40,000 nt of DNA from Gammaproteobacteria bacterium (GTDB lineage: Bacteria; Pseudomonadota; Gammaproteobacteria; GCA-002705445; GCA-002716945). Location: contig JBJKYD010000015.1 of assembly GCA_045561295.1 (NCBI GenBank), positions 9,888-49,887 on the forward strand, given 5' to 3'. The first letter of the stretch is position 1. Every line of letters begins with the position of its first letter. The notes beneath the pieces are model-generated. The model was not told the DNA's origin. It saw only the letters and a list, made by a program, of their open reading frames with translations, and did not search any database. Below are positions 1 to 20,341 of the stretch, piece after piece. A program made the translations under genes and the position numbers.

Positions 1-1
1 A

Positions 2-931
2 GCAGAAGGCGCGGTAGTAATGGAATTAATTCCAGGCATTCTAGTAATGCACGAAGGAATTACAGCTGTTAACTTAATCGGTGCTACATTATCATCAGGT
101 ATCTTTATAGGTATCGGTATTATTTACGGACATGAATTATCACATACCAAAGGTTTTGGTTTTGTAATTTCACGTTTGATGATGGCATTATCAGGTTCAG
201 CACATTTCTGCTATGCACACGTTTACAACCATCACCTAGAACTTGCTAGTGAAGATGATCCTGCAACTGCACCTCGCGGTCGTACAATTTATGGTCATTA
301 CCCACTATCATATCTAGGACAATCTAAATTCTTATACAACATGGAAAAAGAAAGACTTTCAAGAATGGGAGTTTCATTCATTTCATGGCAAAACCGTTGG
401 ATTCGTGGTTATTTAATGGCAGTACCTACAGTAGCACTATTCTTTATGGCTGGTGGCTGGATAGGTATGGCTGTATTAGCTACAGTCTGGGGAATTTCAA
501 ACTTCGAATTAGAAGCATTGAACTACTTAGAGCACTACGGTTTAATACGTGTAAAAGATCAACCTATTGATTATCGCCATAACTGGGATAACTCAACATG
601 TTTCACAGCATGGTTCTTCATCGAAATTGGTCGTCAAGCTGACCACCATGATCGTGGAGAAACACATTTCTGGGAACTTGAAAACGTAGGTTGCCCTAAT
701 ACAGGTTGGGGATACTTTGTAGTATTCTTCATCGCACTTGTACCGCCAATATGGCACTGGTATATGCGTAAAAGATTAGCTGCATGGGATACTCATTTTG
801 CTACAGACGAAGAAAAAGCGATTGCTGCAAGAATCAACAAAGAAGTTGGTTACGAAGGCACACCTTTCTCAGGCGATGTATTACAAGATGCTGGTAACGT
901 TGACCTTGGCTTAAGATCAGCTAAGAAGTAA
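2..931 (+). CDS. AlkB/XylM-family integral-membrane di-iron hydroxylase (fatty-acid-desaturase-like), 5' partial
   Basis: The frame is open to the left window edge (AEGAVV precedes the first Met), so roughly 100 aa are probably missing. All four AlkB-family signature boxes are visible: HELSHTKG (His box 1), AHVYNHH (His box 2), NYLEHYGL (HYG motif) and GRQADHHD (His box 3). Hydrophobic segments lie between them. Confidence 0.8.
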   Translation, partial: AEGAVVMELIPGILVMHEGITAVNLIGATLSSGIFIGIGIIYGHELSHTKGFGFVISRLMMALSGSAHFCYAHVYNHHLELASEDDPATAPRGRTIYGHYPLSYLGQSKFLYNMEKERLSRMGVSFISWQNRWIRGYLMAVPTVALFFMAGGWIGMAVLATVWGISNFELEALNYLEHYGLIRVKDQPIDYRHNWDNSTCFTAWFFIEIGRQADHHDRGETHFWELENVGCPNTGWGYFVVFFIALVPPIWHWYMRKRLAAWDTHFATDEEKAIAARINKEVGYEGTPFSGDVLQDAGNVDLGLRSAKK

Positions 932-957
932 CTTACACCCAAGCAGTAAGTAAATTT

Positions 958-990
958 GAAGGTGCCTGGATTTTAATCTAGACACCTTCA
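958..990 (+). terminator. Candidate stem-loop after the hydroxylase gene
   Basis: GAAGGTG (958-964) pairs with CACCTTC (983-989). Five more inner pairs follow after one mismatch. The downstream tract ATCTTATT is only weakly T-rich. Confidence 0.4.
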
Positions 991-1061
991 TCTTATTAAA
1001 GGGAAGGGGTTTTTAAGATATATGTCTTATCAATCAGCTAAATCTTATCTCGGAGAAAAAT

Positions 1062-1241
1062 ATGAAAGTAACTTATAATGCAGACGTTTGCACACACGCT
1101 GGGGAATGCGTAAAAGGTGCACCAAATGTATTCAAAGTGGTAGATGGTCAGTTTGTAATTGACACAGCTGCTGATAGTGAAGAAAATATAAGAGCAACTG
1201 TAGGTAACTGCCCGTCAGGCGCACTTGTAATCGAAGAGTAA
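1062..1241 (+). CDS. Small (59 aa) ferredoxin-like protein, divergent 4Fe-4S mono-cluster type
   Basis: Not in the supplied ORF track; hand-translated as MKVTYNADVCTHAGECVKGAPNVFKVVDGQFVIDTAADSEENIRATVGNCPSGALVIEE. It has a C-x5-C ... C-P cysteine pattern. A GGAG sits about 7 nt upstream of the ATG. It lies between a hydroxylase and a reductase. Confidence 0.6.
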   Translation: MKVTYNADVCTHAGECVKGAPNVFKVVDGQFVIDTAADSEENIRATVGNCPSGALVIEE

Positions 1242-1278
1242 AAAAAGTAACTAACTAATTCATAATTAGGGGGTAATT

Positions 1279-1930
1279 ATGCCAATTGGAGATCACTTAA
1301 GAGACGTTATGGACCTCTATGGAAGTCCAAAATGTCCTCACACAAATGCAGTGCTTATAGCTGCAGGTGAAAAAGGAGTTGATATCAACTCTCACGTAGA
1401 AGATGACTGGGGTCCTAGTTCATCAATCAGAAGCATGAGTCCACTAGGCATTGGACCGGTCCTTAAAGATCGTACAGCAGTAAACGTTGGTCTTAGTAGC
1501 ATGTATGTCTTATCTTGACGATAAAGGATTTGGACCATCACTAGTTCATAGAAATGGTGTAACCAGAGCAAGAATGTTCCAAGAGATCACTATAGCTCAA
1601 CAAACTGATTGTTCCGATGATGCTGCATTAGCTGCTGCATTAGATCAATTAGAGGCTACACTAAATTCACCACTTGGAAACATGAAAGGTGACTATTGTG
1701 TAGGTCAATACACATTAGCTGATTGTGCTTGGGCAGGTGTATGTCAAGTTGCAACAAACATGGGCAAAGGCACTGCTGTAAGCTCACGTTCTGCTGTCAA
1801 TACTTGGTTCGCTGCTGTTCAGTCACATCCATCAACAAGTAAAGAAGCTATCAACCCATTTAGCTGTCTATCTACTAAAGCTGATCATGATGCAAATAGT
1901 ATGCGTGACGTAAGAATTAATACTGCTTAA
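1279..1930 (+). pseudogene. Glutathione S-transferase-family gene interrupted by a +1 frame change
   Basis: ORF 1279-1518 encodes a GST N-terminal thioredoxin-like part (LYGSPKCPHTNAVLIAAGEKGVD ... SPLGIGPVLKD). ORF 1487-1930, in frame +1, continues with the expected ..MSYLDDKG.. and a helical C-domain (QYTLADCAW). The break must lie between the downstream-frame stop at 1481-1483 and the upstream-frame stop at 1516-1518. GGGGG sits upstream of ATG 1279. Confidence 0.6.
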
Positions 1931-1954
1931 TTACAAAAGTATTAATCTAAGAAT

Positions 1955-1990
1955 GGAAACCCCAGTTATTAATTGGGGTTTCTTTTTTTT
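1955..1990 (+). terminator. Rho-independent terminator
   Basis: GGAAACCCCA (1955-1964) pairs with TGGGGTTTC (1974-1982). A T8 run follows at 1983-1990. Confidence 0.85.
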
Positions 1991-2054
1991 GTCAAAGTGA
2001 TAATGTATTATCGAATATAACGAAACGCTTATACAACATTTTTTATATAGTTTT

Positions 2055-3155
2055 ATGAATATTTATAAATACTTATGGTTTTTTGGAACTAAACCACAAG
2101 ATAGCGAAGCAAGACTATTACCATCTGGTAAAAACTTAGAAGTCTCTCGCGATGAAACACTTTTGAATGCAGCTCTAGAGCAGGGTCTAGATTGGCCTCA
2201 CAATTGTAAATTTGGATCTTGCGGTGAATGCAAGTGTCGTTTAGTTAAAGGTAAAATTAAACCCATGGTTGACTTTAGTGAAGCGCTCACAAAACAAGAA
2301 TTAGCAGAGGATTATATTCTTGCATGCCAATCACGGCTAACAATGGATTGTGATATTGAAGTAGAGTTGGGCGATCTCATTAGAGTTCCTGCTAGAACTT
2401 GTAATGCAAAAGTAAAAGCTACTGAAATGCTAACATCAGATATCATGTCTTTAACAATTGGCACTGATAGTGATATCCCTGAAGGTAAAGACAGACCAGG
2501 ATTAGCAGGTATGTGGGCTGAACTATCTATACCAGGACTTGAACGTCCTAGATCATACTCATTTGCTAGCGCACCTCAAAATGAAAATAAAAATGAATTT
2601 ACTTTTTTCATTAGGAAAGTACCAGGCGGCAAGTTTACCGAATGGCTCTTCAGTGATGACAGAGATCCTGATGAATGTGTCACTATAAATGGCCCATTCG
2701 GCACATTTTATTTAAGAGAAAAAGAAACTCCAATCGTGTGCATTGCAGGCGGTAGTGGATTAGCACCAATAAAAGCAATTTTAGAGGGTGGTGTTAACGA
2801 TCAAATCAAAAGAGATGTTATTTTTCTATTTGGAGCGCGCACGCAAGCAGACTTATATTCATTAAAAGAGATAGAAGATATTAAAAATAATTGGAATAAG
2901 GACTCATCTTTTCAATTTATACCTGTTCTTAACATGGAACCAGAAGATAGTGATTGGAAAGGCGCAAGAGGAATGGTTACGGATTACTTTGAGCAAGAAG
3001 TAATTCCAAAACAAAATTTAGATATCAACGGGTGGCAAGCATATTTATGTGGACCTCCTCCGATGGTAGATGCTGCTGGTGTATGTCTCACTAAAAATGG
3101 TATTTCTGAAGATGAAATCTTCTATGATAAGTTTACAGATTCTAGTAATTTGTAA
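2055..3155 (+). CDS. XylA-type oxidoreductase: N-terminal plant-type 2Fe-2S ferredoxin domain fused to an FAD/NAD(P)H ferredoxin-reductase domain
   Basis: CKFGSCGECKC plus a later ILACQS cysteine form the 2Fe-2S ligand pattern. RSYSFAS is the R-x-Y-S flavin motif. GGSGLAPI is the NAD(P)H glycine motif. YLCGPPPMV is the typical C-terminal motif. Confidence 0.85.
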   Translation: MNIYKYLWFFGTKPQDSEARLLPSGKNLEVSRDETLLNAALEQGLDWPHNCKFGSCGECKCRLVKGKIKPMVDFSEALTKQELAEDYILACQSRLTMDCDIEVELGDLIRVPARTCNAKVKATEMLTSDIMSLTIGTDSDIPEGKDRPGLAGMWAELSIPGLERPRSYSFASAPQNENKNEFTFFIRKVPGGKFTEWLFSDDRDPDECVTINGPFGTFYLREKETPIVCIAGGSGLAPIKAILEGGVNDQIKRDVIFLFGARTQADLYSLKEIEDIKNNWNKDSSFQFIPVLNMEPEDSDWKGARGMVTDYFEQEVIPKQNLDINGWQAYLCGPPPMVDAAGVCLTKNGISEDEIFYDKFTDSSNL

Positions 3156-3285
3156 AAATTTGAAACAGCCCTTATTTATCAATAAATTCTTTACAAATCA
3201 TTATATTTAGATTATTTTATTTCTACGGTATGTGCATAATTTATATCACAATATCGTTAAATGCTAATATAAGAGGAGAGTAAAT

Positions 3286-3558
3286 ATGGGATTTCTATTC
3301 GGTAAGACAGCTCAAGGCACTTATGTCGTTGTAGCTTTCTGGATAGCGTGTTACTACTTCTTCAGCAGCATGTTCCCAATGTGGCACTTTGCACCAGGTT
3401 CAAACCCTGGACTTGCTGGGTGGCCTGTAGCATTACTTATTGGTACACTGTTAATTGTAGCTAATATGATAAGTGTTTATCTTTTCATAAAAGTTGCAGG
3501 TAACAGACCATGGGAATGGTTTGAAGATGGAGTCTACGGACCAGGAGACGAAGGGTAG
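3286..3558 (+). CDS. Small hypothetical membrane protein (90 aa, two predicted TM helices)
   Basis: Strong RBS AAGAGGAGAG lies 5 nt upstream of the ATG. Two hydrophobic stretches are present (VVVAFWIACYYFF and WPVALLIGTLLIVANMISVYLFI). I recognise no family. Confidence 0.5.
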   Translation: MGFLFGKTAQGTYVVVAFWIACYYFFSSMFPMWHFAPGSNPGLAGWPVALLIGTLLIVANMISVYLFIKVAGNRPWEWFEDGVYGPGDEG

Positions 3559-3667
3559 AAGAATTGCAACGGAAGTTGTGATACTTTAGGAGTCTTAATA
3601 CAAGGATTTTACGGGGGAAAGCTTAATTGATTTCAATACTGGACGTATGTCCCCAGCCATAAGACGT

Positions 3668-3681
3668 TATATATATATATA
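3668..3681. repeat. (TA)7 dinucleotide tract
   Basis: TATATATATATATA read directly. It ends 16 nt upstream of the likely start codon (3698) of the outer-membrane channel gene. Confidence 0.9.
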
Positions 3682-3697
3682 AATGAGGAAAAGTTAT

Positions 3698-5269
3698 ATG
3701 AAAACTTTAAAAAATGATTGGAAGCTAGGAGCTGCCGTCGGGACAGCGCTGTCTCTTGGCTCTGCTGGCGCAATCGCAGGACCACACGGGTTCGATCTTC
3801 ATAACGTGTTAAATGGAGCATCAGCATCATTCGCTGGTACATCTATTGCACATACAGAAGATCCAGTATCCGCAGTGTTTGGTAACCCTGCAACGCTTGC
3901 ACAATATTTCGGTGGTACTAACTTTATGTTTGGTGCTACTTTCTACATGCCACGTGCGCAAATGCGTCATGATGGTTCAGCTGGTTATGCTGTTACTAGA
4001 GGTAATAGTCTAAAGCTTGTAGTCAATGGCTCTGGTGTAACAAATGGTGATAATCCAGCGACTGCCTCAACTGAGACAGACGGCGGAGCTTCGCCAGGTG
4101 ATACTGTAGATCAATACTACGGTTTTGACTCAAGATCTGCACAAGATCTTTACGCTGTACCACAAGTTGCAGTAACACAAGATTTATCAGGTCTTGGTAT
4201 ACCTGTTGTACTTGGTGTTGGTGTAACAGCTACTAATGGTATTGGTGTTGATTATCAACACACATCAAACGCTATTGGTGCAGCAGCTGAACTTATTAAT
4301 TTAGGTGTAAACGCTGGTATCGGTATGAAAATGTCTGACACATTAGACGTTGGTGTAGCTTTAACAATTACTTATGCAATGCTTGAAGCAGGAGTTACAG
4401 GCTCTAGCACACAAAAGCATGACTTAGGTTTTAGAGGTACAATCGGTGCGCGTAAGCATATGGGCCCAATGACTATTGGTATGTATTACCAAGGTGAACT
4501 TGAGCATCAATATGCAAACTTACACGTAACAAGTAATCATGGAAGTACTCCATTTGATGAGCAGGATGGTGATTCAGATAGAGTAATCGCTGCCTCTGTA
4601 CAAAACTTGCATGCAAGTGTGACTTGTAACGGTGATAACGGCACTGTATGTAGACAAGACTTGAAAGTACAACAACCTTGGAACATAGGTTTAGGTATGT
4701 CTATGGATATGGGTAATGGCATGTTAGTAATGGCTGACTTTACACATAAAGCATGGTCTGACGCTCATTTCTTTAATGAGTTCTACGATGATCAAAATGT
4801 TGTATCTATAGGTATTCAAAAAACTATGGGTAACTTGAAGCTTCGTGCAGGATACGGATATGCAGATGATCCACTACTCAGCCAAGTTCAAGAGGGCGTT
4901 GAAGTTAAAACCATTGGTGGTATAGATGTTCATGGTAATGCTTATACATCTCCAATGTACGGAATATTTATGTCTTACTTCCAAGCTATGGAAACACCTG
5001 TAATCTACAAGCATAGATTAGCTGTAGGTCTTGGTGTTGAAAGCTTCTTGGGTGTTCCATTTTTATCATTGGACGCGCATGCAGCTGTTCAGCTTGAAGA
5101 AGATAAGTGTTTTGGTTCTGGTCAAACAGGATACTCAGGTGGCACAGGAGCTGCTGGCGGTACCGCACTTGGTGGTGGTCTAGCTGATGCTGGATGTACT
5201 GCATCTGATCACTCCAAAGCAACAGTTTCATCATTCCATATGGGTGGTGCTTTAACTTGGGCATTCTAA
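3698..5269 (+). CDS. FadL/TodX/XylN-family outer-membrane channel for hydrophobic compounds
   Basis: Start chosen at ATG 3698 (GAGGA lies 8 nt upstream) rather than the ORF-track ATG 3683. It has a signal peptide ending AGAIAGP. The N-terminus [31 protein letters not shown] parallels E. coli FadL [43 protein letters not shown] parallels FadL WTFRTGIAFDDSP. The C-terminus ..ALTWAF is a beta-barrel terminal Phe signature. Confidence 0.8.
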   Translation: [523 protein letters not shown]

Positions 5270-5316
5270 GTTAGAGAAAAGTATTTATATTACAATGATG
5301 TAATATAAAAGTAATT

Positions 5317-5342
5317 AGAGGGAGGATTAGGTTCTTCCCTCT
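5317..5342 (+). terminator. Candidate stem-loop after the channel gene
   Basis: AGAGGGAGG (5317-5325) pairs with CTTCCCTCT (5334-5342) with one G-U pair. The downstream sequence is AT-rich but has no clean T run. Confidence 0.45.
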
Positions 5343-5380
5343 GATATTTAATATTAAATATAAAAAGGAGCGCGCAAATA

Positions 5381-6742
5381 ATGAAAAAACTTATATCAAC
5401 TTTATATGGTATGTTGATGTCAGCTTTTCTTGCAGTAGCACTTGTACCAACACAAGCATTCTCAGATGAGACATGCATGTCACCATACATGGCTAAAATC
5501 GTAGGCCAAGAGGACTACGTATATGTATGGACATTAGGTCAAGTGGGCGTAGGAGATGAACAGGATAAATTGGTAACTATAGCAGTTAATCCAAATTCTC
5601 CACACTACGGCAATGTAATTGGACACGTTTCTGTCGGTGGACGTAATGAAGCTCATCATTCTGGTTTTACAGATGATAGACATTACCTCTGGGCAGCAAC
5701 ACTAGATACCAGTAAAATTTTCATTTTTGATGTTCATACAAATCCTAACAAACCAAAACTTCATAAAGTTATTACTAACTTTGTAAAAGCTTCTGGTGGA
5801 ATTGTAGGACCTCATACAACATATGCACTACCAGGAAGAATGATGATTTCTGGTCTTTCTAACAACCAAGACTTTGGTGGTAGAACAGCACTTGTTGAAT
5901 ATACAAATGATGGTACATATGTAGCTACATATCACATGCCACATGATGAAAACCTTTATGGTGCTACTAAAACAGGACAAATAGCTGATGGATACGGATA
6001 TGATGTTCGTGCATTACCACGTCGTAATGTTATGATCACATCTTCATTCACAGGTTGGAATAACTACATGATGAACTTAGGTAAACTCATGGGTGACTCT
6101 GATGCTATGAAACGTTTTGGTAACACAGTAGTAGTATGGGATTTACATTCACGTAAACCTAAAAAAGTATTTGACGTACCAGGTGCACCGCTTGAAATTA
6201 GATGTGCATGGGGTTCACAAAATAACTACTGCTTCACTACAACAGCATTGACTTCACAAATCTGGTTGATTTATGAAAAAGATGGCGAGTGGCACACTGA
6301 ATCTGTAGGAACTATTGGTGATCCTGCAAAAATTCCACTACCTGTAGACATCTCTATTACAGCTGATGATCAACATTTATGGGTAAATACATGGAATGAT
6401 GGCATGACAAGAGTATTTGATATTTCAAATCCTCACATGGCAAAAGAAGTGTACACACACAAAATTGGTGACCAAGTAAACATGCTATCTCAAAGCTGGG
6501 ATGGAAAACGTGTATACTTTACATCATCACTATTAGCTAACTGGGACAAAGCAGACGGACCAGAAAAAATGCCTCAGTTCTTCAAAGCATATCATTACAA
6601 AGATGGCAAATTGGAATTCCAATTCGCTCTTGATTTTGCTAAAGAAAAACTTGGTATGCCTCATCAAATGAGATTTGGTGCATATTCTTTATATGCTAAA
6701 TCTCCAAAAGATGGAGCTAAAGTCGCAGAACTTTCTAAGTAA
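5381..6742 (+). CDS. mtoX: Selenium-binding-protein (SBP56) family methanethiol oxidase, periplasmic
   Basis: Sec-type signal peptide (..VPTQAFS). Blocks are shared with human SELENBP1: [20 protein letters not shown] vs [40 protein letters not shown] vs [28 protein letters not shown] vs RHNVMIST, and [17 protein letters not shown] vs DGKRLYITTSLYSAWDK. RBS AAAGGAG is present. Confidence 0.9.
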   Translation: [453 protein letters not shown]

Positions 6743-6891: not shown

Positions 6892-8883
6892 ATGTTAAGG
6901 AAGATAATATTTATATGTATGTTACCTGTCGCTATCATGGCGCAGGAGTTGACGTACGACAATAAGGCACTAGCGCCAGGTTGGACCAATCTAACATTTA
7001 CACCCCCAAGCGCATCGTCCTATACATTGGCCAGCTTCTCACCTGCAAAAGATGGCGATGTAATTAATCAAAGAGAAGAAAATACTTCACTTCACGATAT
7101 ATATGATGACAAAGTTACATTGCTTAACTTTATGTACACCACTTGTACAGATATAAATGGTTGTCCATTAGCCACAGCAGTTTTTCATAAAATTCAACAA
7201 AAATTATCTAAAGACCCAGCTATTGGCAAACAAGTCAATCTGGTAAGCCTTAGTTTTGATCCTAAAAATGATACACCAGAAATTATGAAACTTTATGGAG
7301 CAGGTACCGAGAGACACCTCGTAGATTGGCAGTTTTTAACAACACAAAATGCAGATATCCTTGATCCAATACTTGATGGTTACCAACAAAGAATTATAAA
7401 AGAATATGATAGTGAAGGTAATTATATTGGTTCAATTTCCCATATTCTTAGAGTTTTTTTAATCGATAAAGATAAACAAGTTAGAAATATTTATAGCGTT
7501 TCTTTTCTTCATGCAGATTTAATCATTAATGATATAAAAACACTACTTGATCCAAATACTAATAATGGCACTTTGATTGCTGCAGCTGATACAAATTCAA
7601 ATTCTAAATTAGACGCTGTTAAATCTGAGACATCAAAGCTATCAAAACCAGGTGATAATAAAGATGGTTATTATGACAGTGATTATGAGAGTGCAAGTAA
7701 AAGTTTACACAGAACTGGAAAACCTGCAGATTTATATACAATTGCCACAACTAAGCAACTTGGACTACCAAAGCTTAAGCTGCCTGAAGGGACAAATCTT
7801 ACACCTGAAAAAATTGATTTAGGTAGAAAATTATTTTTTGATAGAAGGCTGTCTCATACAGATACAATATCTTGTGCTATATGTCATGTACCAGAAATGG
7901 GCTTTGCACAAAATGAATTAGCAACTGCTGTAGGCACTGAGGGAAGGTCTGTCCCAAGAAATGCTCCTACTGTTGTGAACGCCGCCTATTTATCTAGGTT
8001 CTTCCATGATGCGAGAGAAAATTCTCTTGAAGATCAAGTATGGGGACCTTTGCTAGCTCACAATGAAATGGCGAATCCGTCGCCCGGATATATTCTAAAT
8101 AAAATTAAAAATATACCTGATTACGAAGGCTTGTTTGAAACTGCATATGGTGGATCAGTAAATATGGATTCCTTATCCAGAGCACTTGCTGCCTACCAAT
8201 ACAGTCTGCTCAGCGGTAATTCACCATTTGATAAGTGGTACTATAATAACGAATCAAGCGCAATTTCTAAATCTGCTAAGCGAGGCTTTGAAATCTTTAA
8301 AGGTAAGGGCAATTGTATGGCATGTCATTTAGTAAACGATGAATATGCATTATTTACAGATGAGAAACTTCATAATACTGGAATAGGATTTAAATCTTCT
8401 ATGTATGTTGAACCTCCGCGCAAAAAAGTAGTATTAGCACCAGGCATAGAGGTCGATGTTGACACGTCTGTCTATGCGAATGACTCAAGATTTAAAAACG
8501 AAATTAAACCTAATGACTTAGGTCTTTATTTAATTACTCAAGATCCTGGTGATCGTTGGAAAATAAGGACACCATCATTGAGAAATGTTGAATTATCAGG
8601 TCCTTATATGCACAACGGTCAATTAGCTACATTAAAAGACGTTGTTGATTTCTACAATGAAGGCGGCGTAAGAGAAGTTGGTAAGATGAAAAATGAAACC
8701 ATTAGTCCTCTTATGATGCCTCTCAACTTGAGTAAACAAGAAGTGGATGATGTAGTAGAGTTTCTTAAAACGCTAACTGGTTCAAACATGGACACACTAG
8801 TTATGGATGCTTTTGCGGCCCCAATAGGGGAAGTATCACTGCAGGACCCAAACTGGTTTCATGATAATAAACTGAAATATTAA
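6892..8883 (+). CDS. Fusion protein: N-terminal SCO1/SenC copper chaperone domain plus C-terminal di-haem cytochrome c peroxidase (MauG-like) domain
   Basis: Signal peptide present. SCO-type region: NFMYTTCTDINGCP, SLSFDPKNDTP, ISHILRVFLID. A low-complexity linker separates the domains. Two haem c motifs (CAICH and CMACH) lie within CCP/MauG-like sequence (GRKLFFDRRLS, RTPSLRNV, PYMHNG). Confidence 0.85.
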   Translation: MLRKIIFICMLPVAIMAQELTYDNKALAPGWTNLTFTPPSASSYTLASFSPAKDGDVINQREENTSLHDIYDDKVTLLNFMYTTCTDINGCPLATAVFHKIQQKLSKDPAIGKQVNLVSLSFDPKNDTPEIMKLYGAGTERHLVDWQFLTTQNADILDPILDGYQQRIIKEYDSEGNYIGSISHILRVFLIDKDKQVRNIYSVSFLHADLIINDIKTLLDPNTNNGTLIAAADTNSNSKLDAVKSETSKLSKPGDNKDGYYDSDYESASKSLHRTGKPADLYTIATTKQLGLPKLKLPEGTNLTPEKIDLGRKLFFDRRLSHTDTISCAICHVPEMGFAQNELATAVGTEGRSVPRNAPTVVNAAYLSRFFHDARENSLEDQVWGPLLAHNEMANPSPGYILNKIKNIPDYEGLFETAYGGSVNMDSLSRALAAYQYSLLSGNSPFDKWYYNNESSAISKSAKRGFEIFKGKGNCMACHLVNDEYALFTDEKLHNTGIGFKSSMYVEPPRKKVVLAPGIEVDVDTSVYANDSRFKNEIKPNDLGLYLITQDPGDRWKIRTPSLRNVELSGPYMHNGQLATLKDVVDFYNEGGVREVGKMKNETISPLMMPLNLSKQEVDDVVEFLKTLTGSNMDTLVMDAFAAPIGEVSLQDPNWFHDNKLKY

Positions 8884-9464
8884 TGATGAAGAAATATTTT
8901 ATTATATTTCTTGTCATTTTCCTGATAACACCTATACATCAAGCCCAGTCAGAAAAATATCCTCTCCCTACAAAAATGCTTATGGACCCAATGCCAGCTG
9001 CAGATATGGCACCAGAGATAAATGTTATTGACATGAATGGTGAAAAAAGAACTTTACAAGACTTAAAAGGTAAATTTGTTTTAGTTAATTTCTGGGCAAC
9101 TTGGTGTAACCCATGTAAAGTTGAGATGCCATTATTAGAGAACCTTCATCAAACACTTAAAAGTGATAAATTCACAGTTCTTGGTCTTCATGTTGGCCCA
9201 GGACCAGAAAACATAGAAGAATTTAAAAAACTCATGCCAATATCTTTCCCAATATATGTCGATATGGAATTAGAGGTTAATTGGGGAGTTCCAGGCCTGC
9301 CTACAACCTTCCTTTTAAATCCAGAGGGAAGATTAATATACAGAGCAGTAGGTAAAAGAGAGTTTGCATCGGACGACATGATCAACTTCATAAGAAATCA
9401 AATTGAAGGCTATAAGTTCGCTCAAAAATATGAAGGCAAGCTTGTGCCTCCTATGATGAGGTAA
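8883..9464 (+). CDS. TlpA/ResA-like periplasmic thiol:disulfide oxidoreductase
   Basis: Signal/anchor peptide present. The thioredoxin-fold motif is FWATWCNPC. Its start overlaps the upstream stop (TAATG), which suggests translational coupling to the SCO1-MauG gene. Confidence 0.8.
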   Translation: MMKKYFIIFLVIFLITPIHQAQSEKYPLPTKMLMDPMPAADMAPEINVIDMNGEKRTLQDLKGKFVLVNFWATWCNPCKVEMPLLENLHQTLKSDKFTVLGLHVGPGPENIEEFKKLMPISFPIYVDMELEVNWGVPGLPTTFLLNPEGRLIYRAVGKREFASDDMINFIRNQIEGYKFAQKYEGKLVPPMMR

Positions 9465-9469
9465 TTTTA

Positions 9470-10261
9470 CTATATAACAAACAGCTCCATAAGTTCTTTT
9501 CCAGACTTAGTCCCGAAATACCTCACAGGCTTTGACGAATTAATTATACTTTTATTTAGTATTTTATTAATTTTTATTTTATAGAAATTAAAAAAGGTTA
9601 AATCTGTTTGATTTGCTCTAATATATTCCCGACATATAGATTTATCTCTTGTAAAAATTGTTCCTCTACGAGCATTATGACAAAAGTTATTACCAATTTT
9701 TCCTAGAACAACTACAGAACCTGATATTAGCTCGAGACATGAACCTGACCCAATGTTTCCACCTATTATAATATTCCCTCTTCTCATTCTTACAATAGAG
9801 TTATCTCCAACATTTTTTTGCACGTATATAAACCCATCAACAAATCCTTCATTCATGCTTGTAGGCAAACTACAAAACCCATCATCTGCATTACCTAGAA
9901 TATGTACAGACCCTCCTTTCATTCCTGAGCATGCATTTTTACCAGCATTACCATTTAGTATAATCTCCCCACTACACATGCCCTTTGCAAGTCCAAATCC
10001 AACATTTCCAAAAATAGTAATTTTTTTGTCTTCGAGATTATTACCAATATTATCTAGATGTTTGTTTGAATTACTAATTATAATATCTTTGAAGTTATTA
10101 CCCGATACATTGAACAAAGTAGACAACTTATATCCTTTAGTTCCATAATTTACCCGGAGGTTTTTAATTTTTGACAAACTAGACGTTTTGATTTTCGAAA
10201 GCCAGCTCATATCCAGTCTTTGTTTATTTTTGATTTTGCATTTAAAGACTAAAGGTTTCAT
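9470..10261 (-). CDS. fhcC: Formyltransferase/hydrolase complex subunit C (FwdC/FmdC homologue)
   Basis: Repeated G-x-G-rich beta-helix segments typical of FwdC (GNVGFGLAKGM, NGNAGKNACSGMKGG, ILGNADDG, IGGNIGSG). ATGA overlap with fhcD. Last gene of an fhcB-A-D-C string. Confidence 0.8.
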   Translation of the reverse strand: MKPLVFKCKIKNKQRLDMSWLSKIKTSSLSKIKNLRVNYGTKGYKLSTLFNVSGNNFKDIIISNSNKHLDNIGNNLEDKKITIFGNVGFGLAKGMCSGEIILNGNAGKNACSGMKGGSVHILGNADDGFCSLPTSMNEGFVDGFIYVQKNVGDNSIVRMRRGNIIIGGNIGSGSCLELISGSVVVLGKIGNNFCHNARRGTIFTRDKSICREYIRANQTDLTFFNFYKIKINKILNKSIINSSKPVRYFGTKSGKELMELFVI

Positions 10262-11154
10262 TTTAATATCTTTCTTAAATGAAAGTGATGCGGTCCTAGC
10301 TTTCCACCATAATTACCAGCTGAGACAGACACAATATCTTTTTTATATTTAGATTTAGATATTGCAACCAATGATTCACGTATACCTTTATCAATATCCT
10401 CTTTGGTTAAGCCGTTTATAACTATCTCCATTACACAATTAACACTTTTATGCAATTTGCTACCGGTAATGCCGCTTAGAGATGGACAAAATGCGTCGTT
10501 TGTTGATGCTATCAATGCTTTGTACTTAGAGCCAACTTTAGATCCAGACCTGACAACTCCACCTGGGAATGGGGTGATAATGTTACCAATTTCACTCATT
10601 ACATTCACTGCTATTTCACATGCTGAAAGACATGAAGCTCTATTTTTTGACAACAATATAAAATTACCACCACCAATTGCTGGGACACGTGCAGTCATCT
10701 CCTCGCACATAAATTCTCCATCCATCACTGGTATTCTCCAAAATCTTTTTTTATCAATACGTTTTGATATTTGATAACCATCGCCAAAATATTTTAAATT
10801 TTTTCCAAGGGGAATCATATCTTCTCCATCAAGACCTGAAAACAGTGCAGTAGTTGGACATGTCAAGATGCACTGCCCAGCCCTTGTCTCAAGCTGTTTC
10901 TCTAGTTGACTCCGTGACATTGAGAAGAGAAGTATGGCGTACCCTGGTCTTCCATCTGGCGTTTCTTTGGCTTTCAACTGTCTTTCTATACCAGCTTCTA
11001 TTCCGCATGCAATAACAGATGTTGCAAATCCGGTAAATGATGCAGCTGCATTCTTAGCCCACTTTATATTATCAGCTGTTACAATTATTCTACTTGCTTT
11101 CATATTAAAAGCTTCAGCAAAAGTATTCTCAATAGCTAACCCATTAATTTTCAT
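10258..11154 (-). CDS. fhcD: Formylmethanofuran:H4MPT formyltransferase (Ftr homologue)
   Basis: Length of 298 aa and an N-terminus IENTFAEAF..ASRIIVTA typical of Ftr. Lies between fhcA and fhcC with 4-nt overlaps on both sides. Confidence 0.85.
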   Translation of the reverse strand: MKINGLAIENTFAEAFNMKASRIIVTADNIKWAKNAAASFTGFATSVIACGIEAGIERQLKAKETPDGRPGYAILLFSMSRSQLEKQLETRAGQCILTCPTTALFSGLDGEDMIPLGKNLKYFGDGYQISKRIDKKRFWRIPVMDGEFMCEEMTARVPAIGGGNFILLSKNRASCLSACEIAVNVMSEIGNIITPFPGGVVRSGSKVGSKYKALIASTNDAFCPSLSGITGSKLHKSVNCVMEIVINGLTKEDIDKGIRESLVAISKSKYKKDIVSVSAGNYGGKLGPHHFHLRKILK

Positions 11155-12806
11155 GATATTCTTTTCCTGCTACATTTAACTTCATTTATATCAGATCCAA
11201 TTACCTCTGACATTTCATCATTACTGATAGAGTAGTTAGGCAATGCAATAGTATGGTATTTATCAAAATATTTTTTAAGCTTTTTCTCAATAGTAGCATC
11301 ATATTCGGGCTTAACGACTTGTGTTTTACCCCATGTGTAGTTTTTTATTTCACCATCTTTAACTACTACAACTCCATCTTTAATAACATGCGTTGGGCTT
11401 GCAAACATCTCTTCTACATCTCTAATATTGCTATCATAGATCGTTATGTCAGCATCAGCCTCTTTTGAGAGGGAGCCTTTATTTGTCAGACCTAAGATCC
11501 TAGCAGGTGCAGACCGAGTCATTGTTGCAATTTCCGATAATGTATATTCTCTCTTTATGTCTTTTAAAATAGTATGTTTTGAAATATCTACTGAAAGTTG
11601 ATCTAGCAAATTATCTCTGAATGACTTATTCATAAGTAGTTTTATTAAATGAGGGTATGATGTAAATGGGGCTCCATTAGGATGGTCTGTAGTAAGAAAT
11701 ATTTTATCTGGGTCTTCTGTCAAAAGAAATGTTTCAAGCCCAATTGCCCACTGTAGAGCATTTACAAAGCTCTGATCTGTATATTTAAACGGAACGACAC
11801 CACAGCCAGCCTCACATTCAATATCCATACAAAGCCATTTGTCTGGATGAGCATGACTATGATTTGCATGTTGTTTCATGCTATCACCAGACATTGTAGC
11901 TGTTTGTCCAAACAAAACTTGGCCAACATCACATGTCAGATTTGGTATTTTATTTATGTAGTCAGTTATTTCCGCAGAGGCTGATGAAAAGTTTCGATCT
12001 CCATTATTACCATAGCTATGAAATTGAATATGAGTAATATGCACAGGTAATCCCTCAGCAGCTTTTATGGTTTCAATCGTTGATTTAAAATTTCCAGGGA
12101 CGCCTAGGTTACTGCAGTGAACATGTAAAGGATGTGGCACGCCTAATTCATAAACAGCTCTTGCGAGTAAACGGACTATTTTACGCGGGGTTATCTTATA
12201 CCTGACTGAATTTTCATCAACATTCAGTGCTCGTTGATTAAACTTAAAAGCATTTATTCCGCCCGGATTAACAACTTTTATGCCTATACATTGAGTTGCT
12301 TTTAATATGAATGCTACGTAATCATTAATCTCTGATTGATGAGCTCCTCTTGAAATTAGATCTAATAGGAAATCATCATTACCAAGAAGCGCATAACCGC
12401 CTTTATCTATGAATGGCGTATCAGCCATTTCTGAATGCGACTGTCTAGCATTTATCGGAAGCACAGCTGGTTCAAAACAGGATGTATAACCCATTTTAAT
12501 ATATTGAAGCCCAGTTTTAAGTGTACTTGGAATAAAATCTGCAGTTAAATCATAGTCTCTATCACTGTTGTTATGAAATTCCTGTAGCATTAATCTTGCT
12601 ATGTTTACCTTTCCGCCACCTATATGTGTGTGTAAATCAATTGCACCTGGCATAATAATTTTATTCTTGCATTCGATAGTTTCAGATATTTTTTCATTTA
12701 ATTTTTCGACAATTTTTCCATCTTTAACATAGATATCTTTCTTCTTGTTGAAAATTTTATTTATAGGATCAAAAATCTGACCATTTTTTAAACATAGGGT
12801 AGTCAT
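11151..12806 (-). CDS. fhcA: Formyltransferase/hydrolase complex subunit A (FwdA-like amidohydrolase)
   Basis: 551 aa. Amidohydrolase metal motif PGAIDLHTHIGGG near the N-terminus, with further His clusters (PHPLHVHCSN, HITHIQFH). Operon context supports the call. Confidence 0.85.
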   Translation of the reverse strand: MTTLCLKNGQIFDPINKIFNKKKDIYVKDGKIVEKLNEKISETIECKNKIIMPGAIDLHTHIGGGKVNIARLMLQEFHNNSDRDYDLTADFIPSTLKTGLQYIKMGYTSCFEPAVLPINARQSHSEMADTPFIDKGGYALLGNDDFLLDLISRGAHQSEINDYVAFILKATQCIGIKVVNPGGINAFKFNQRALNVDENSVRYKITPRKIVRLLARAVYELGVPHPLHVHCSNLGVPGNFKSTIETIKAAEGLPVHITHIQFHSYGNNGDRNFSSASAEITDYINKIPNLTCDVGQVLFGQTATMSGDSMKQHANHSHAHPDKWLCMDIECEAGCGVVPFKYTDQSFVNALQWAIGLETFLLTEDPDKIFLTTDHPNGAPFTSYPHLIKLLMNKSFRDNLLDQLSVDISKHTILKDIKREYTLSEIATMTRSAPARILGLTNKGSLSKEADADITIYDSNIRDVEEMFASPTHVIKDGVVVVKDGEIKNYTWGKTQVVKPEYDATIEKKLKKYFDKYHTIALPNYSISNDEMSEVIGSDINEVKCSRKRIS

Positions 12807-14062
12807 TATTCAAGAATCTCTCTTAGTATTTCTTGGGTACTTCTGCTGTGGGACATCCTCAATGATGTCAATGGCAAACTCACAACATTATCTGTTCTAA
12901 ATATATGTCCTTTAAAGTCAATACCAGGTATGCCACATGATATAAATACATCTGGTTCAATATTAAACTTGGTGCATGGTCGTCCAATGACAATATTCTT
13001 ATTTTTTTTATTCAAGACTAACTTTTTCTCTGAAAGGGAATTAAGGTGTATCACTAAATCTGAATTTCCTGAATTGATTAGTTGTATTGCGTTATTTGCA
13101 TCTTTATCATACTCAAAGAAATTCCCTGTAAATTTAATTCTAGATGGGAATCCTGTCATCCATCCTAAAGTTTGTGTGAAACTTACATCCCCATCATTTC
13201 CTGATAATGATAAACAAGCAGCTCTCGATGTCTTATTGAGCGAGACAACATATGCAGATATATTATATATAATTTCATCACACTCTCTATAACTATCAAA
13301 CTCAGATGTGGCCCAAAGAACAGATAAATATTTGGAAGTTTCAATACTAGTAAGTAACTTATTGAAGACCTTATTGCTAATTGAAGTCTCATTTTTCTTA
13401 CTAATAAAGCTATTTAGCAGTTTGGTTATATTTCTATTGTTATAGTCTATATAAGTTATCCTTTTATCCCTGATATTGCAGTTTTTTATATTATTTTTTT
13501 TATTTCCAATTACATATATTTCTTTTTTCTTCGAATTGACACTAAAGCTGTTTTTAGTTGCAAGAAACTTGTCCATCAAACGGGGATAAGTTTCAAAAAG
13601 ATTATTAGAAAAGACAATTATGATGTCTGATTTATTCTTAATCTCTGTCAGAGATGTCGCCATGTAGCCTCGCCTCTGATAAATACTAATATTTTTTAAA
13701 AAAATACTACTATTAACATGATCAACAATAGCATTAACCTTTGATGCAGCTGATAATACCTCGCGAGTAACATTCACATCGCTGCTTGAGTTGAGAAGAA
13801 CCGTCTCTTTTGACTTCTTTATGAGTTGTTTAGAATACTGGTAAGCTTTTTTCGGTTCACATGGTTTACCTTTGACGGTTGTAACCATATCTTTAAATTT
13901 TGCAAGATTAAGCTTCTCATATTTGTACGCACATGACTTTGGAACATTACTTTTAACATATAGCTTGTTGTCATGAACGTCTATCTCTAAATCATCGCAG
14001 TGGAGAGAGCAAAAAGGACAGACAATATTCTTATGGTTAAGAGAATCTGATATCTTTGACAT
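12806..14062 (-). CDS. fhcB: Formyltransferase/hydrolase complex subunit B (FwdB-like)
   Basis: 418 aa. The N-terminal cysteine cluster CPFCSLHCDD is as in FwdB/molybdopterin-oxidoreductase N-domains. First gene of the fhc string, with a 1-nt overlap with fhcA. Confidence 0.8.
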   Translation of the reverse strand: MSKISDSLNHKNIVCPFCSLHCDDLEIDVHDNKLYVKSNVPKSCAYKYEKLNLAKFKDMVTTVKGKPCEPKKAYQYSKQLIKKSKETVLLNSSSDVNVTREVLSAASKVNAIVDHVNSSIFLKNISIYQRRGYMATSLTEIKNKSDIIIVFSNNLFETYPRLMDKFLATKNSFSVNSKKKEIYVIGNKKNNIKNCNIRDKRITYIDYNNRNITKLLNSFISKKNETSISNKVFNKLLTSIETSKYLSVLWATSEFDSYRECDEIIYNISAYVVSLNKTSRAACLSLSGNDGDVSFTQTLGWMTGFPSRIKFTGNFFEYDKDANNAIQLINSGNSDLVIHLNSLSEKKLVLNKKNKNIVIGRPCTKFNIEPDVFISCGIPGIDFKGHIFRTDNVVSLPLTSLRMSHSRSTQEILREILE

Positions 14063-14124
14063 AAATTATTTTACATCAATAATAAATAACTTTACATGCA
14101 AAAACATTAATATATTCTATTTTA

Positions 14125-15066
14125 ATGGCTACCAAAAAGACATTCAAGGAAGTAAAAATTGAAGCAAATTCACGTCTACATTTGGGTTTTATTAGTCTAA
14201 ATTCATCTACACCATTTACATATGGTGGAGTAGGTATCTCGATTTCTGGTCAGCCAACTATTGTCAGTATAAAAAAATCAAAAAAATTTGAATCAAATCT
14301 TCCGAAAAATATAACAAATGGAATATTAAACTTTCTTAGATCCAAGAAACTTCATACTATGATTAAAATTGATTGTGTACATTCTCCTGAAAATCATATT
14401 GGACTAGGGTCAGGAACGCAACTCATACTATCGGTTGAGGAATTAATTACAAAATTCTATAAATTAGATATAAATTCAAATATATTCAATAGGAAATTTA
14501 GGTCTGGTATTGGAATGAACTCCTATACAAAAGGAGGCTTTATTATTGACGCACCAAAAAATAATCTCACTCAGAGTGAAATAATATTTCAGACCAAATT
14601 CCCAGTAGAATGGAAAGCTATTCTTTTATTTGATAATAAGAAAAAGGGTCTTCATGGAAAATCTGAAAAAAACTTTTTTGCATCTACAACTTCTCATAAT
14701 TTACGTAAGAACTTATCTGATATTACTCTGAATGAACTAATACCATCTGTGATTTATAAAGACTTTAGAGTTTTTGCAAAGAGTTTAACTAGATTCCAAA
14801 AGTTGAATGCTATGTTTTATTCGAAAGTACAGAAATCTATTTATTTGAGTAATGATATCAATAAAATTATAAATCAGATTTCCAAGCGATTTATTGTAGG
14901 TTGTGGACAAAGTTCTTGGGGACCTACAAGTTATATGTTTGTGGATTCTAAAAATGATCTAAATGAAATTTTGCCTATTTTAGATAAGGCAATAAGTATG
15001 TATAATAACCTCTCATACGAAGTCGTGTCAGCTAAAAATAAAGCACGTAAGCTAATTTATACATAG
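14125..15066 (+). CDS. mptG: GHMP-kinase-fold protein, probable beta-ribofuranosylaminobenzene 5'-phosphate synthase (H4MPT biosynthesis)
   Basis: GHMP motif GLGSGTQL, 313 aa. First gene of the plus-strand H4MPT operon, immediately before mtdB. Confidence 0.65.
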   Translation: MATKKTFKEVKIEANSRLHLGFISLNSSTPFTYGGVGISISGQPTIVSIKKSKKFESNLPKNITNGILNFLRSKKLHTMIKIDCVHSPENHIGLGSGTQLILSVEELITKFYKLDINSNIFNRKFRSGIGMNSYTKGGFIIDAPKNNLTQSEIIFQTKFPVEWKAILLFDNKKKGLHGKSEKNFFASTTSHNLRKNLSDITLNELIPSVIYKDFRVFAKSLTRFQKLNAMFYSKVQKSIYLSNDINKIINQISKRFIVGCGQSSWGPTSYMFVDSKNDLNEILPILDKAISMYNNLSYEVVSAKNKARKLIYT

Positions 15067-15075
15067 GAGATTTTC

Positions 15076-15966
15076 ATGGACAAACCGTATATCTTACATT
15101 TAATTACATCTGAAAAAAATGCTAGCCCTTTTGATGTGAATATGGCTATTGATGCTGGGTGGACGAATATTATTCCTTATACAAATGCTGAACAGACTGA
15201 AATACAAACTCTTGTACAAGATGCTATATTCTCGAGATCTCCTTCAGGATTACAAAGGACTGGGATATTTTTTGGTGGTAGAGATACACATGAAGCTATG
15301 GATATGATTCAAGAAGCAAAAAAACATATGGTGCCTCCATTTGAAGTATCTGTCTTTGCTGATCCAAGCGGGGCATTTACTACTGCAGCAGGTATGGTTG
15401 CCCTTACAGAAAAATATCTTAAAGATGGTTTTGACCAGGGATTAGATAAATCAAGCGTTGTTATTCTAGGTGGTACTGGTCCAGTCGGTGTAGCATCAGC
15501 TGTGATCTGCGCTAAAGCAGGAGCAAATGTCAGATTAGTTGGACGTAGTATAGAAAAAGCCGAAAAAACTGCGGCAATTTGTAATGACCGATATCAATCT
15601 AAAAATGTTGTTGCGGGTGCAGATGCAGATAAGCAAGATTATCTTAATAAAGCTGACATTGTTTTAAATACTGGAGCTGCCGGGATTCAATTAATGAGTG
15701 ATGAAAATATACAAATGAGTTCTAATTTAAAAATATGTGCAGACACTAATGCCGTTCCGCCATCTGGTATTGCTGGTGTTGACGTTATGGATAGTGGAAA
15801 AATTATGGAGAAATCTCCAAATAAGTGTCGAGGCATCGGCGCATTAGCAATTGGAAATGTAAAATATAAATCTCAACATGAATGTTTGAAACTAATGTAT
15901 ACATCTGATGATCCAGTATACTTAGATTTTGAAGATGCATTTAAATTTGCACAAAAAAGCGTATAA
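15076..15966 (+). CDS. mtdB: NAD(P)-dependent methylene-H4MPT dehydrogenase
   Basis: 296 aa MtdA/MtdB-family sequence (SPFDVNMAIDAGW, Rossmann GGTGPVG). Assigned to mtdB rather than mtdA from its linkage with mch, fae and fhc. Confidence 0.8.
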   Translation: MDKPYILHLITSEKNASPFDVNMAIDAGWTNIIPYTNAEQTEIQTLVQDAIFSRSPSGLQRTGIFFGGRDTHEAMDMIQEAKKHMVPPFEVSVFADPSGAFTTAAGMVALTEKYLKDGFDQGLDKSSVVILGGTGPVGVASAVICAKAGANVRLVGRSIEKAEKTAAICNDRYQSKNVVAGADADKQDYLNKADIVLNTGAAGIQLMSDENIQMSSNLKICADTNAVPPSGIAGVDVMDSGKIMEKSPNKCRGIGALAIGNVKYKSQHECLKLMYTSDDPVYLDFEDAFKFAQKSV

Positions 15967-18844: not shown

Positions 18845-18859
18845 ATATTGAAATGTAAT

Positions 18860-19735: not shown

Positions 19736-19777
19736 GCTACGTTCGTTTATTAATAAACATAAATATAGGAGATAATA

Positions 19778-20290
19778 ATGGCAGTAGTCGACAAAGTATT
19801 AGTTGGTGAAGCGCTAGTTGTAACCGAAGGTGGGGATAACGAGATTTCACATATCGACTTGTTAATGGGACCACGTGGTTCTGCAGTAGAAGATGCATTT
19901 TGTAACACTCTTTGTAATAACAAAGATGGCTTTACATCTTTATTAGCTGTAGTTTCACCTAACTTACTATGCAAACCAGCGACAGCTATGTTTAACAAAG
20001 TAACAATTAAAGGTGCTAAACAAGCAGTTCAAATGTTTGGACCAGCTCAAGCAGCTGTTGCAAGAGCGGTAACTGAATGCGTTGAAGATGGAACAATCCC
20101 AGCTGATGAAGCTGACGATATTTTCATTTGTGTAGGTGTATTTATTCATTGGGACGCTGATGACAATAAACGTATCTACGATTACAATTTTGAAGCTGTC
20201 AAAATGGCAATCAAAAACGCTATAAGTGGTGAGCCTAAGGCACAAGATGTTGTTGCTAAGAAAGCTACAGAACACCCATTTGAAAAGTAA
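19778..20290 (+). CDS. fae: Formaldehyde-activating enzyme
   Basis: 170 aa. The N-terminus VGEALV...[19 protein letters not shown] is diagnostic for Fae. Strong RBS TAGGAG. Higher GC and CGT Arg codons suggest high expression. Confidence 0.9.
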
Positions 20291-20309
20291 TCATATCTGA
20301 TTATGTTAG

Positions 20310-20341
20310 AAAGAGCTGGCTACTTGCCAGCTCTTTTTTTT
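20310..20341 (+). terminator. Rho-independent terminator of the mptG-fae operon; overlaps the 3' end of the convergent gene
   Basis: An 11-bp stem: AAAGAGCTGGC (20310-20320) pairs with GCCAGCTCTTT (20326-20336). The T run extends to 20341. The stop codon of the minus-strand gene sits at the 5' stem/loop junction (20320-22), and its last residues KKRAGK are encoded by the 3' stem arm, part of the loop and the T run. Confidence 0.85.

Follow-up and report, generated by a model that had tools for sequence, protein, structure and literature searches.

Which compound is oxidized by an AlkB-like membrane hydroxylase that is encoded, together with its own electron-transfer proteins and an outer-membrane channel, directly upstream of methanethiol oxidase? 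This question is raised by a stretch of 40,000 nucleotides (nt) from a gammaproteobacterium of the order GCA-002705445 (NCBI GenBank assembly GCA_045561295.1, contig JBJKYD010000015.1, positions 9,888 to 49,887 of the forward strand), in the following called the window. A first-pass annotation, made from the sequence alone, had suggested dimethylsulfide (DMS), short alkanes or methylated aromatics as substrates. From our analysis we conclude, with moderate confidence, that the module encodes a multicomponent membrane-bound DMS monooxygenase which would yield methanethiol and formaldehyde. We favor this reading because the module is orthologous to and collinear with a DMS-induced gene cluster of Methylophaga, a genus for which the first enzyme of DMS degradation is described as missing (neither dmoA nor ddhA is present in the six genomes compared), and because the named cultured carriers among the best matches are the two DMS-growing, mtoX-positive species of that genus. 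Further reasons are that the linkage to methanethiol oxidation recurs in different gene arrangements, that the module sits between formate dehydrogenase/SCO1 genes and the genes for methanethiol oxidase (mtoX) and the tetrahydromethanopterin (H4MPT) pathway, and that the hydroxylase clade is far from every characterized alkane or xylene enzyme.

The genes listed by the first-pass annotation were all confirmed on the + strand by open reading frame (ORF) listing and profile searches. The module consists of six genes and includes one terminator-like hairpin; a second hairpin follows it:

2..931, + strand: membrane di-iron hydroxylase of the AlkB/XylM fold, 5′-truncated, 309 of ~410 amino acids (aa) (Pfam PF00487, FA_desaturase)
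1062..1241, + strand: mono-cluster ferredoxin, 59 aa, three Cys (Pfam Fer4_19, E 7e-17)
1279..1930, + strand: gene of the glutathione S-transferase (GST) fold, conserved N-terminal Cys, +1 frameshift near 1494-1497 (Pfam and homologue alignment)
1955..1983, + strand: terminator-like hairpin followed by T8, 3′ of the GST-fold gene
2055..3155, + strand: NAD(P)H:ferredoxin reductase of the XylA/BenC type (Pfam Fer2, then FAD_binding_6 and NAD_binding_1)
3286..3558, + strand: DUF1145-like protein, 90 aa, two transmembrane (TM) segments, conserved C-terminal NRPWEWF motif
3683..5269, + strand: FadL/TodX-family outer-membrane channel, 528 aa, signal peptide (transitive homology)
5314..5345, + strand: hairpin separating the channel gene from mtoX

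Relatives were collected in a scan with one genome per species, which found 203; the best 80 loci were kept, and all synteny counts below rest on those. They were compared by tblastn and by all-against-all clustering of their ORFs. Because each component is conserved in dozens of genomes, none of them is a chance ORF.

The hydroxylase and its partner proteins

The hydroxylase matched FA_desaturase in Pfam (E 3e-27) and AlkB in the Protein Data Bank (PDB; 8sbb, E 1.6e-29). Its 5′ end is short by ~100 aa when compared with the 410-aa gene of a relative (locus L006). For the structure model we used a full-length homologue (P0001) that is 97% identical to the window protein. The AlphaFold (AF2) model (pLDDT 70.6, pTM 0.77) had a single significant Foldseek match in the PDB, FtAlkB-AlkG (8f6t; TM 0.67, 24% identity), and shows the membrane fold of the FA_desaturase superfamily with six TM helices. 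Alignments located the metal-binding boxes as follows:

131..145, + strand: His box 1, HELSH (H44, H48)
203..235, + strand: His box 2, HFCYAHVYNHH (H68, H73, H77, H78), with Ala at the position of the AlkB Glu
521..544, + strand: NYLEHYGL box (E177, H178)
635..649, + strand: last box, QADHH, with Gln212 at the place of FtAlkB His311

The first-pass annotation had counted all four signature boxes as present. Three are indeed canonical and correspond to the HELxH, xHxxxHH and NYxEHYGL boxes of AlkB, with an Ala-His in His box 2 as in XylM. The last one differs, since a Gln replaces an iron-ligand His: it reads GRQADHH in the window, versus RHSDHH in AlkB and NHINHH in XylM, and the Gln is invariant among all clade members aligned. 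In the FtAlkB structure, Glu271 and His272 are ligands of Fe2, the iron nearest the methyl group of the substrate, which is also ligated by His311. Of the nine His and one Glu that form the di-iron site of AlkB, eight His and the Glu are thus kept, with Gln as the equivalent of His311. Like AlkB, the window enzyme presumably hydroxylates a terminal methyl C-H.

A phylogeny had been proposed as a check on these assignments. We calculated a neighbour-joining tree from a trimmed alignment of proteins from the window's lineage, metagenome-assembled genomes (MAGs) of sponge symbionts and sediments, Methylophaga, AlkB, XylM and reductase-linked AlkB-like proteins. The window hydroxylase belongs to a discrete clade outside characterized AlkB and XylM, with at least 62% identity inside and a long branch to all else. 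In the alignment underlying the tree, the clade is 23-28% identical to AlkB, 27-29% to XylM and 28-31% to the reductase-linked AlkB-like proteins; by tblastn, the hydroxylase is 30-36% identical to plasmid-borne AlkB, XylM and AlkB-like proteins. It is neither placed among characterized AlkB/AlkM nor sister to XylM. Among 1.84 billion representatives of 50%-identity clusters, one full-length protein exceeded 38% identity (68%, 623 bits) and the next one scored 191 bits, leaving a gap from 68% to 38%.

The electron partners also set the module apart from AlkB. AlkB works with rubredoxin (AlkG) and rubredoxin reductase (AlkT), and classical AlkB loci in our comparison carry adjacent rubredoxins. 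In agreement with the first-pass annotation, the window has neither of the two, nor do the related modules; a Fer4_19 ferredoxin and a Fer2-FNR reductase are encoded instead. The ferredoxin has the motif CTHAGEC...CP, as compared to CIGCGVC..CP in the 4Fe-4S ferredoxin of Thermotoga maritima. Because Ala stands at the second Cys, we specify this ferredoxin-like ORF as a three-Cys mono-cluster type. At least 22 of the fetched loci, and Methylophaga as well, have it beside the hydroxylase; we can only guess that it binds the hydroxylase at the site that rubredoxin uses on AlkB. The reductase is 39% identical to XylA of plasmid pWW53 over its full length (E 5e-84) and has the same N-terminal plant-type 2Fe-2S domain, followed by FAD and NAD domains.

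The GST-like gene had been reported on the same strand, where it does lie, but one extra base (frameshift region 1487-1500) splits it into ORFs of 79 and 147 aa. In 10 of 10 close relatives examined it is intact and encodes 216 aa. The frameshift could be a single-cell sequencing or amplification error, or the gene could be a real pseudogene. At the start of helix 1, at least 95% of 47 homologues share a Cys. As a PDB sequence search gave only weak matches to SspA and GST, we assign neither a GST class nor an activity. The 90-aa protein is preceded by AGGAG, 7 nt before its ATG, consistent with the strong ribosome-binding site noticed earlier. The assignment of the channel to the FadL family holds by transitive homology, through a protein that carries the Pfam domain Toluene_X/FadL and shares 39% identity with the channel (E 2e-100), although the channel's own direct Pfam search gave no FadL match and a PDB sequence search no match. 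It is 24% identical to XylN (E 2e-6) and 30% to the FadL of Methylophaga.

The resemblance to XylM/XylA/XylN of the TOL plasmids pWW0/pWW53, which the first-pass annotation had emphasized, therefore concerns the architecture, a membrane hydroxylase and a reductase with its own plant-type 2Fe-2S domain near a FadL-family channel. It extends less to the hydroxylase and channel sequences and not to the pathway, as xylB/xylC-type dehydrogenases, both present in pWW53, were not found in the window. Nor does the TOL system have counterparts of the small ferredoxin, the Cys-type GST-fold protein or the DUF1145 membrane protein. As the ligand set, electron partners and phylogenetic placement all deviate, the hydroxylase has the AlkB fold without AlkB membership. 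The module is a variant of the AlkB/XylM-type membrane monooxygenases with an altered iron ligand and a different electron chain, and its substrate is probably new relative to that type.

It could still be a true hydrocarbon oxygenase that hydroxylates or epoxidizes alkanes, isoprene or other alkenes, or methylated aromatics, with GST-fold proteins opening epoxides as in isoprene degradation. The AlkB fold, the database names "alkane 1-monooxygenase" and "alkB", the counting of these genes as alkB in marine surveys, the FadL-type channel, which the TOL, tod and cym systems also have, and the three GST paralogues of some clade members agree with this. So do the nearest out-of-clade relatives among plasmid records (~30-36% identity), from a Hydrocarboniclastica marina plasmid and a fusion protein of Polaromonas naphthalenivorans CJ2, which are adjacent or fused to a XylA-type (ferredoxin) reductase and lie in an alkane-type context with genes for GMC oxidoreductase, alcohol and aldehyde dehydrogenases, CoA ligase and OmpW. 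They have the canonical HSHHH box. Genes for alcohol or aldehyde dehydrogenases, CoA ligases or beta-oxidation were, however, found neither in the window nor in the Methylophaga core cluster, and the context in the window is that of C1 and sulfur metabolism. The identity to characterized enzymes is only 23-31%, the iron ligand is altered and the Methylophaga cluster is induced by DMS (see below). Short alkanes and methylated aromatics, two of the substrates initially suggested, are further disfavored because the module occurs in obligate methylotrophs, limited to C1 compounds and fructose, and in 1.1-Mb genomes. Altogether we consider a hydrocarbon substrate improbable.

The Methylophaga module and its response to DMS

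An orthologous cluster is located on scaffold GG657883.1 of M. thiooxydans DMS010. In one direction it encodes the hydroxylase, a truncated globin, the Fer4_19 ferredoxin, GST, reductase, a 67-aa protein and FadL, and continues past FadL with a globin, a DUF4242 protein, an NMO-family protein and a protein of 398 aa. The window and DMS010 share the six core genes in the same order, and the encoded homologues have identities of 69, 53, 40, 46, 47 and 30%. M. sulfidovorans carries the same cluster. These two species, the mtoX-positive, DMS-growing ones of the genus, are the only named cultured carriers among the best-matching hydroxylases. M. thiooxydans has two mtoX copies. The DMS010 module lies 7.7 kb from an mtoX-SCO1/MauG pair and divergent from it; this mtoX ends at 257906, exactly as MDMS009_211 in the legend of Figure S3 of Kroeber and Schaefer 2019 (PMC6548844).

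The first-pass annotation had called for transcription profiles under DMS or methanethiol, and for DMS these exist in the RNA-seq data of that study, which compared M. thiooxydans on DMS and on methanol. Its Table S6 gives 1359 on DMS versus 10 on methanol for a "fatty acid desaturase domain protein", 1469 versus 18 for a "membrane protein, aromatic hydrocarbon degradation", 618 versus 12 for an "oxidoreductase NAD-binding domain" and 601 versus 21 for glbN. These values correspond to a 29- to 136-fold induction on DMS (~50- to 140-fold for the counterpart of the enzyme system itself), and the orthologous module is among the most DMS-induced gene sets of M. thiooxydans. At the protein level, the DUF4242 protein MDMS009_82 was 9.3-fold up in the DMS proteome (PMC6548844).

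To connect these data to the genome, we matched the printed sequence of MDMS009_82 exactly to contigs and from there to scaffold GG657883.1. The source names of the cluster proteins are identical to the annotation strings of Table S6, and their UniRef identifiers, C0N294-C0N2A0, are consecutive. A motif search of the supplement of PMC6548844 found no module protein sequences, and its Table S9 holds newly annotated genes only. The authors missed the neighborhood because the locus tags of the draft genome are not positional, and these published transcript data were never before read as a cluster. MDMS009_82 is also 74% identical to a module-linked DUF4242 protein. We discounted this as proof of orthology since DUF4242 is very conserved and widespread; a search gave 7993 matches at E ≤ 1e-20, with identities of 67-100% among the 120 best that were listed.

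The first DMS enzyme of M. thiooxydans was considered missing by the authors, with dmoA and ddhA absent from all six Methylophaga genomes compared, and the primary DMS enzyme of the genus has been an open question since 2010 (PMC6548844). They interpreted the induced desaturase as membrane repair. Accordingly, the protein could be a membrane-lipid desaturase or hydroxylase responding to H2O2 from methanethiol oxidation. Besides the authors' own view, the Pfam family name FA_desaturase and the production of H2O2 by MtoX are in line with it. We regard it as very improbable, given the AlkB-specific NYxEHYGL box and AlkB fold, the reductase, ferredoxin and outer-membrane channel that are encoded alongside and co-induced, and the retention of the same module beside mtoX in 1.1-Mb genomes.

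A closer alternative is the same enzyme system acting on another methyl-sulfur substrate, such as methanethiol, dimethyl disulfide or trisulfide, methylthio-acids or DMSO (dimethyl sulfoxide). The induction was measured for DMS versus methanol only, and methanethiol and oxidation products are present in DMS cultures. Sulfur-oxidation genes flank the module, and a Cys-type GST-fold partner suits disulfide or thiol-adduct chemistry. However, methanethiol is already handled by MtoX, with two copies in M. thiooxydans, and the step missing in these organisms is specifically DMS cleavage. We therefore rate this alternative as unlikely, if less so than a hydrocarbon substrate.

The Methylophaga cluster has additional genes that the window lacks. 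In Methylophaga and relatives (L088 6781-9590; L098, L100, L102), genes for a CbbQ/NorQ-like AAA+ protein and a NorD-like VWA protein lie divergently, directly upstream of the hydroxylase. In nitric oxide reductase, the non-heme iron is inserted by a CbbQ/NorQ and NorD-type pair; by analogy, this pair may load the di-iron site of the hydroxylase. The other extras are two group-1 truncated hemoglobins, a DUF4242 (SCO4226-like) protein and an NMO-family flavoprotein (L088 11251-11613, 15260-15751, 15857-16132 and 16151-17215).

Methanethiol oxidase linkage and a candidate DMS monooxygenase

As the first-pass annotation had stated, mtoX and an H4MPT formaldehyde-oxidation island adjoin the module:

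5381..6742, + strand: methanethiol oxidase MtoX, signal peptide (NCBIfam MtoX, 708.9 bits; cut-off 650)
6892..8883, + strand: SCO1/SenC-MauG fusion (Pfam; gene order as in the mto clusters of M. thiooxydans)
8883..9464, + strand: TlpA-like thiol:disulfide oxidoreductase (profile searches)
9470..14062, − strand: fhcCDAB, formyltransferase/hydrolase complex
14125..28024: mtdB, mch, fae and genes for H4MPT/methanofuran biosynthesis

The window MtoX, an SBP56-family protein above the equivalog score, is 65% identical to MDMS009_211 of M. thiooxydans and is likewise followed by SCO1/MauG, a presumed MtoX maturation factor, and TlpA. A common operon of the module and mtoX was considered and rejected: both the GST-fold gene and the channel gene are followed by terminator-like hairpins, which argue against a single transcript, so co-transcription is not implied.

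In the pelagic gammaproteobacterial single-cell genomes and MAGs that represent the window's lineage, the hydroxylase is 88-100% identical and the partner proteins have diverged to 48-91%. Ten species-level genomes share the order formate dehydrogenase alpha/beta, a PCD-like protein, SCO1, hydroxylase, ferredoxin, GST, reductase, small TM protein and FadL, which continues with mtoX, SCO1/MauG, TlpA, fhcC and fhcD; mtoX is always adjacent and co-directional. The predicted linkage to mtoX thus holds in these 10 genomes and in M. thiooxydans. In two other marine relatives the module is flanked by tail genes of the mto cluster, in one of them pdo, sqrB-like and sulP genes and in the other a TlpA homologue with pdo and soxCD. 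More distant members (67-76% identical; among them Ca. Porisulfidus, Ca. Oxydemutator and Thiotrichales MAGs) keep subsets, for example hydroxylase-ferredoxin-GST-reductase-small TM or hydroxylase-GST-small TM-FadL-DUF4242. The conserved core comprises six genes, and linkage to mtoX is not universal.

In the mechanism that we propose, DMS would pass the outer membrane through the FadL-type channel. Electrons would flow from NAD(P)H via FAD and then the 2Fe-2S cluster of the XylA-type reductase, probably through the 59-aa ferredoxin, to the di-iron center of the hydroxylase. There, DMS would be hydroxylated at a methyl C-H, and the hemithioacetal formed would decay to methanethiol and formaldehyde. 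According to the gene assignments, periplasmic MtoX, matured by SCO1/MauG and TlpA, would oxidize the methanethiol, and formaldehyde would be converted via Fae and the H4MPT pathway to formate, for which close relatives encode a formate dehydrogenase just upstream. The Cys-type GST-fold and DUF1145 proteins may be accessory, with thiol exchange on hemithioacetal or methanethiol adducts as a guess. As both reaction products are substrates of the neighboring MtoX and H4MPT systems, the island of the window's lineage, with the upstream formate dehydrogenase, would, if this is true, hold a complete route from DMS to CO2.

The proposed reaction equals that of DmoA/DmoB of Hyphomicrobium sulfonivorans, DMS + O2 + NAD(P)H to methanethiol and formaldehyde, likewise upstream of MtoX. 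DmoA/DmoB is a soluble luciferase-like, FMNH2-dependent flavin enzyme, unrelated to the window hydroxylase in sequence and cofactor. Profile searches found no luciferase-like FMNH2-dependent oxygenase domain in the module, and the resemblance is functional only.

Several points weigh against a DMS monooxygenase. DMS cleavage is deduced here from gene content, context and published expression data. The contrast between DMS and methanol cannot separate DMS from methanethiol, sulfide or peroxide as the inducer. Three of the four locus tags were tied to cluster genes by annotation strings and not by sequence, and for one mapped tag the strand entries of Table S6 are inconsistent. About 45 distant-clade loci from sponge-symbiont and sediment MAGs have no mtoX within 10 kb, some hydroxylase copies stand alone without partners, and in the window itself the hairpins part the module from mtoX. 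Multicomponent membrane oxygenases are often inactive in extracts, and for this reason a negative extract assay weakens a monooxygenase without excluding it. Such a result is attributed in PMC6548844 to Boden et al. 2010, who, as cited there, could not detect activity of a DMS monooxygenase in extracts after growth of M. thiooxydans on DMS and proposed a methyltransferase instead.

The product might also be a different one. AlkB-type enzymes sulfoxidize thioethers, and the other known DMS oxidases, DdhA, Tmm and DsoB, make DMSO; by analogy, the hydroxylase could oxidize DMS at the sulfur, for detoxification or energy, without cleavage. Growth of Methylophaga on DMS carbon, however, needs C-S cleavage with methanethiol as the intermediate, and what recurs beside the module is mtoX and genes of formaldehyde oxidation rather than genes for enzymes of DMSO or DMSO2. 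We consider sulfoxidation quite improbable. For DMS as such, the initial suggestion has gained strong and independent, though indirect, support from the Methylophaga induction, the proximity of mtoX and the flanking sulfur genes, which falls short of proof of the substrate.

With cleavage to methanethiol and formaldehyde as the favored reaction, the module is so far the strongest candidate for the first, still missing enzyme of DMS degradation in these bacteria, and it consists of six genes that are amenable to cloning. DMS is the main biogenic sulfur gas from the oceans, and bacteria consume much of it before it escapes. In a review of June 2026, DmoA is the only enzyme listed for the conversion of DMS to methanethiol; those listed as forming DMSO are DdhA, DsoB and Tmm. 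Direct literature searches found no report linking AlkB or alkane monooxygenase to methanethiol oxidase or DMS.

The order GCA-002705445 was described by Francis et al. 2021 as having 1.1-Mb genomes with complete H4MPT pathways and no identified C1 assimilation route, and its SBP56 (MtoX) was detected in bloom metaproteomes. According to a metatranscriptome study of 2026, it is in this order that "alkB" expression in the photic ocean is highest, and in one MAG two copies are expressed. The window's lineage fits this description, with genomes of ~1.1 Mb, a full H4MPT pathway and two hydroxylase paralogues per genome. Its "alkB" genes are now counted as ocean alkane hydroxylases. We put forward, more tentatively and at somewhat below even chances, that the whole clade is the enzyme of marine methylotrophs converting DMS to methanethiol and formaldehyde, and that the highly expressed "alkB" genes of the streamlined pelagic order GCA-002705445, as well as those of Methylophagaceae and UBA10353, are DMS-oxidation genes and do not belong to an alkane cycle. 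If so, a prominent "alkane hydroxylase" signal of the surface ocean would reflect DMS oxidation and estimates of alkane-degrading potential would need revision. For the biological sink of DMS in the surface ocean, the clade would then be a new marker that can be quantified, and the His-to-Gln change would sit at the substrate-side iron of an AlkB-fold DMS monooxygenase.

Neighboring genes and variants of the module

In relatives of the window (L006-L020), the 10 kb 5′ of the hydroxylase contain genes for NAD-linked formate dehydrogenase alpha/beta, a pterin-4a-carbinolamine-dehydratase-like protein and SCO1/SenC (for example, L008 6724-8403 and L007 3774-6530). These upstream genes extend the C1/sulfur island.

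A second hydroxylase paralogue, 80-83% identical, stands alone in genomes of the window's lineage, and seven genomes contain two paralogues each. The lone copy (L021-L035, L038, L039; ~10001-10870) lies beside genes for ribosomal protein L31 and a sterol-desaturase-like protein. In another genome, a lone copy of 87% identity (L001 10001-11233) is found beside DsrC and photolyase genes. For one MAG of this lineage, two contigs together amount to 1.09 Mb.

A variant from sponge and sediment MAGs (L045, L048, L050, L051, L054-L058; ~11300-15700) has the gene order hydroxylase, three GST-fold paralogues, a conserved 146-aa protein without a Pfam match, and FadL. Some larger genomes carry two near-identical hydroxylase copies (L060/L062, both on OZ242278.1, and L074/L076, both on OY759361.1), one beside ferredoxin-GST-reductase and the other in an unrelated context with a reductase 5 kb off.

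Within the window, the hydroxylase module and mtoX (1-6000) have a G+C content of 0.38-0.40, as compared to 0.26-0.33 in the H4MPT and dcw regions (14000-40000). Protein composition, high expression or foreign origin are possible causes. The dcw cell-division cluster follows the H4MPT/methanofuran genes, which extend to ~28 kb. Its order is unusual in that the FtsZ gene (Tubulin and FtsZ_C domains, 32195-33340) lies between mraW (30986-31918) and ftsI (33384-35048), in the usual place of ftsL.

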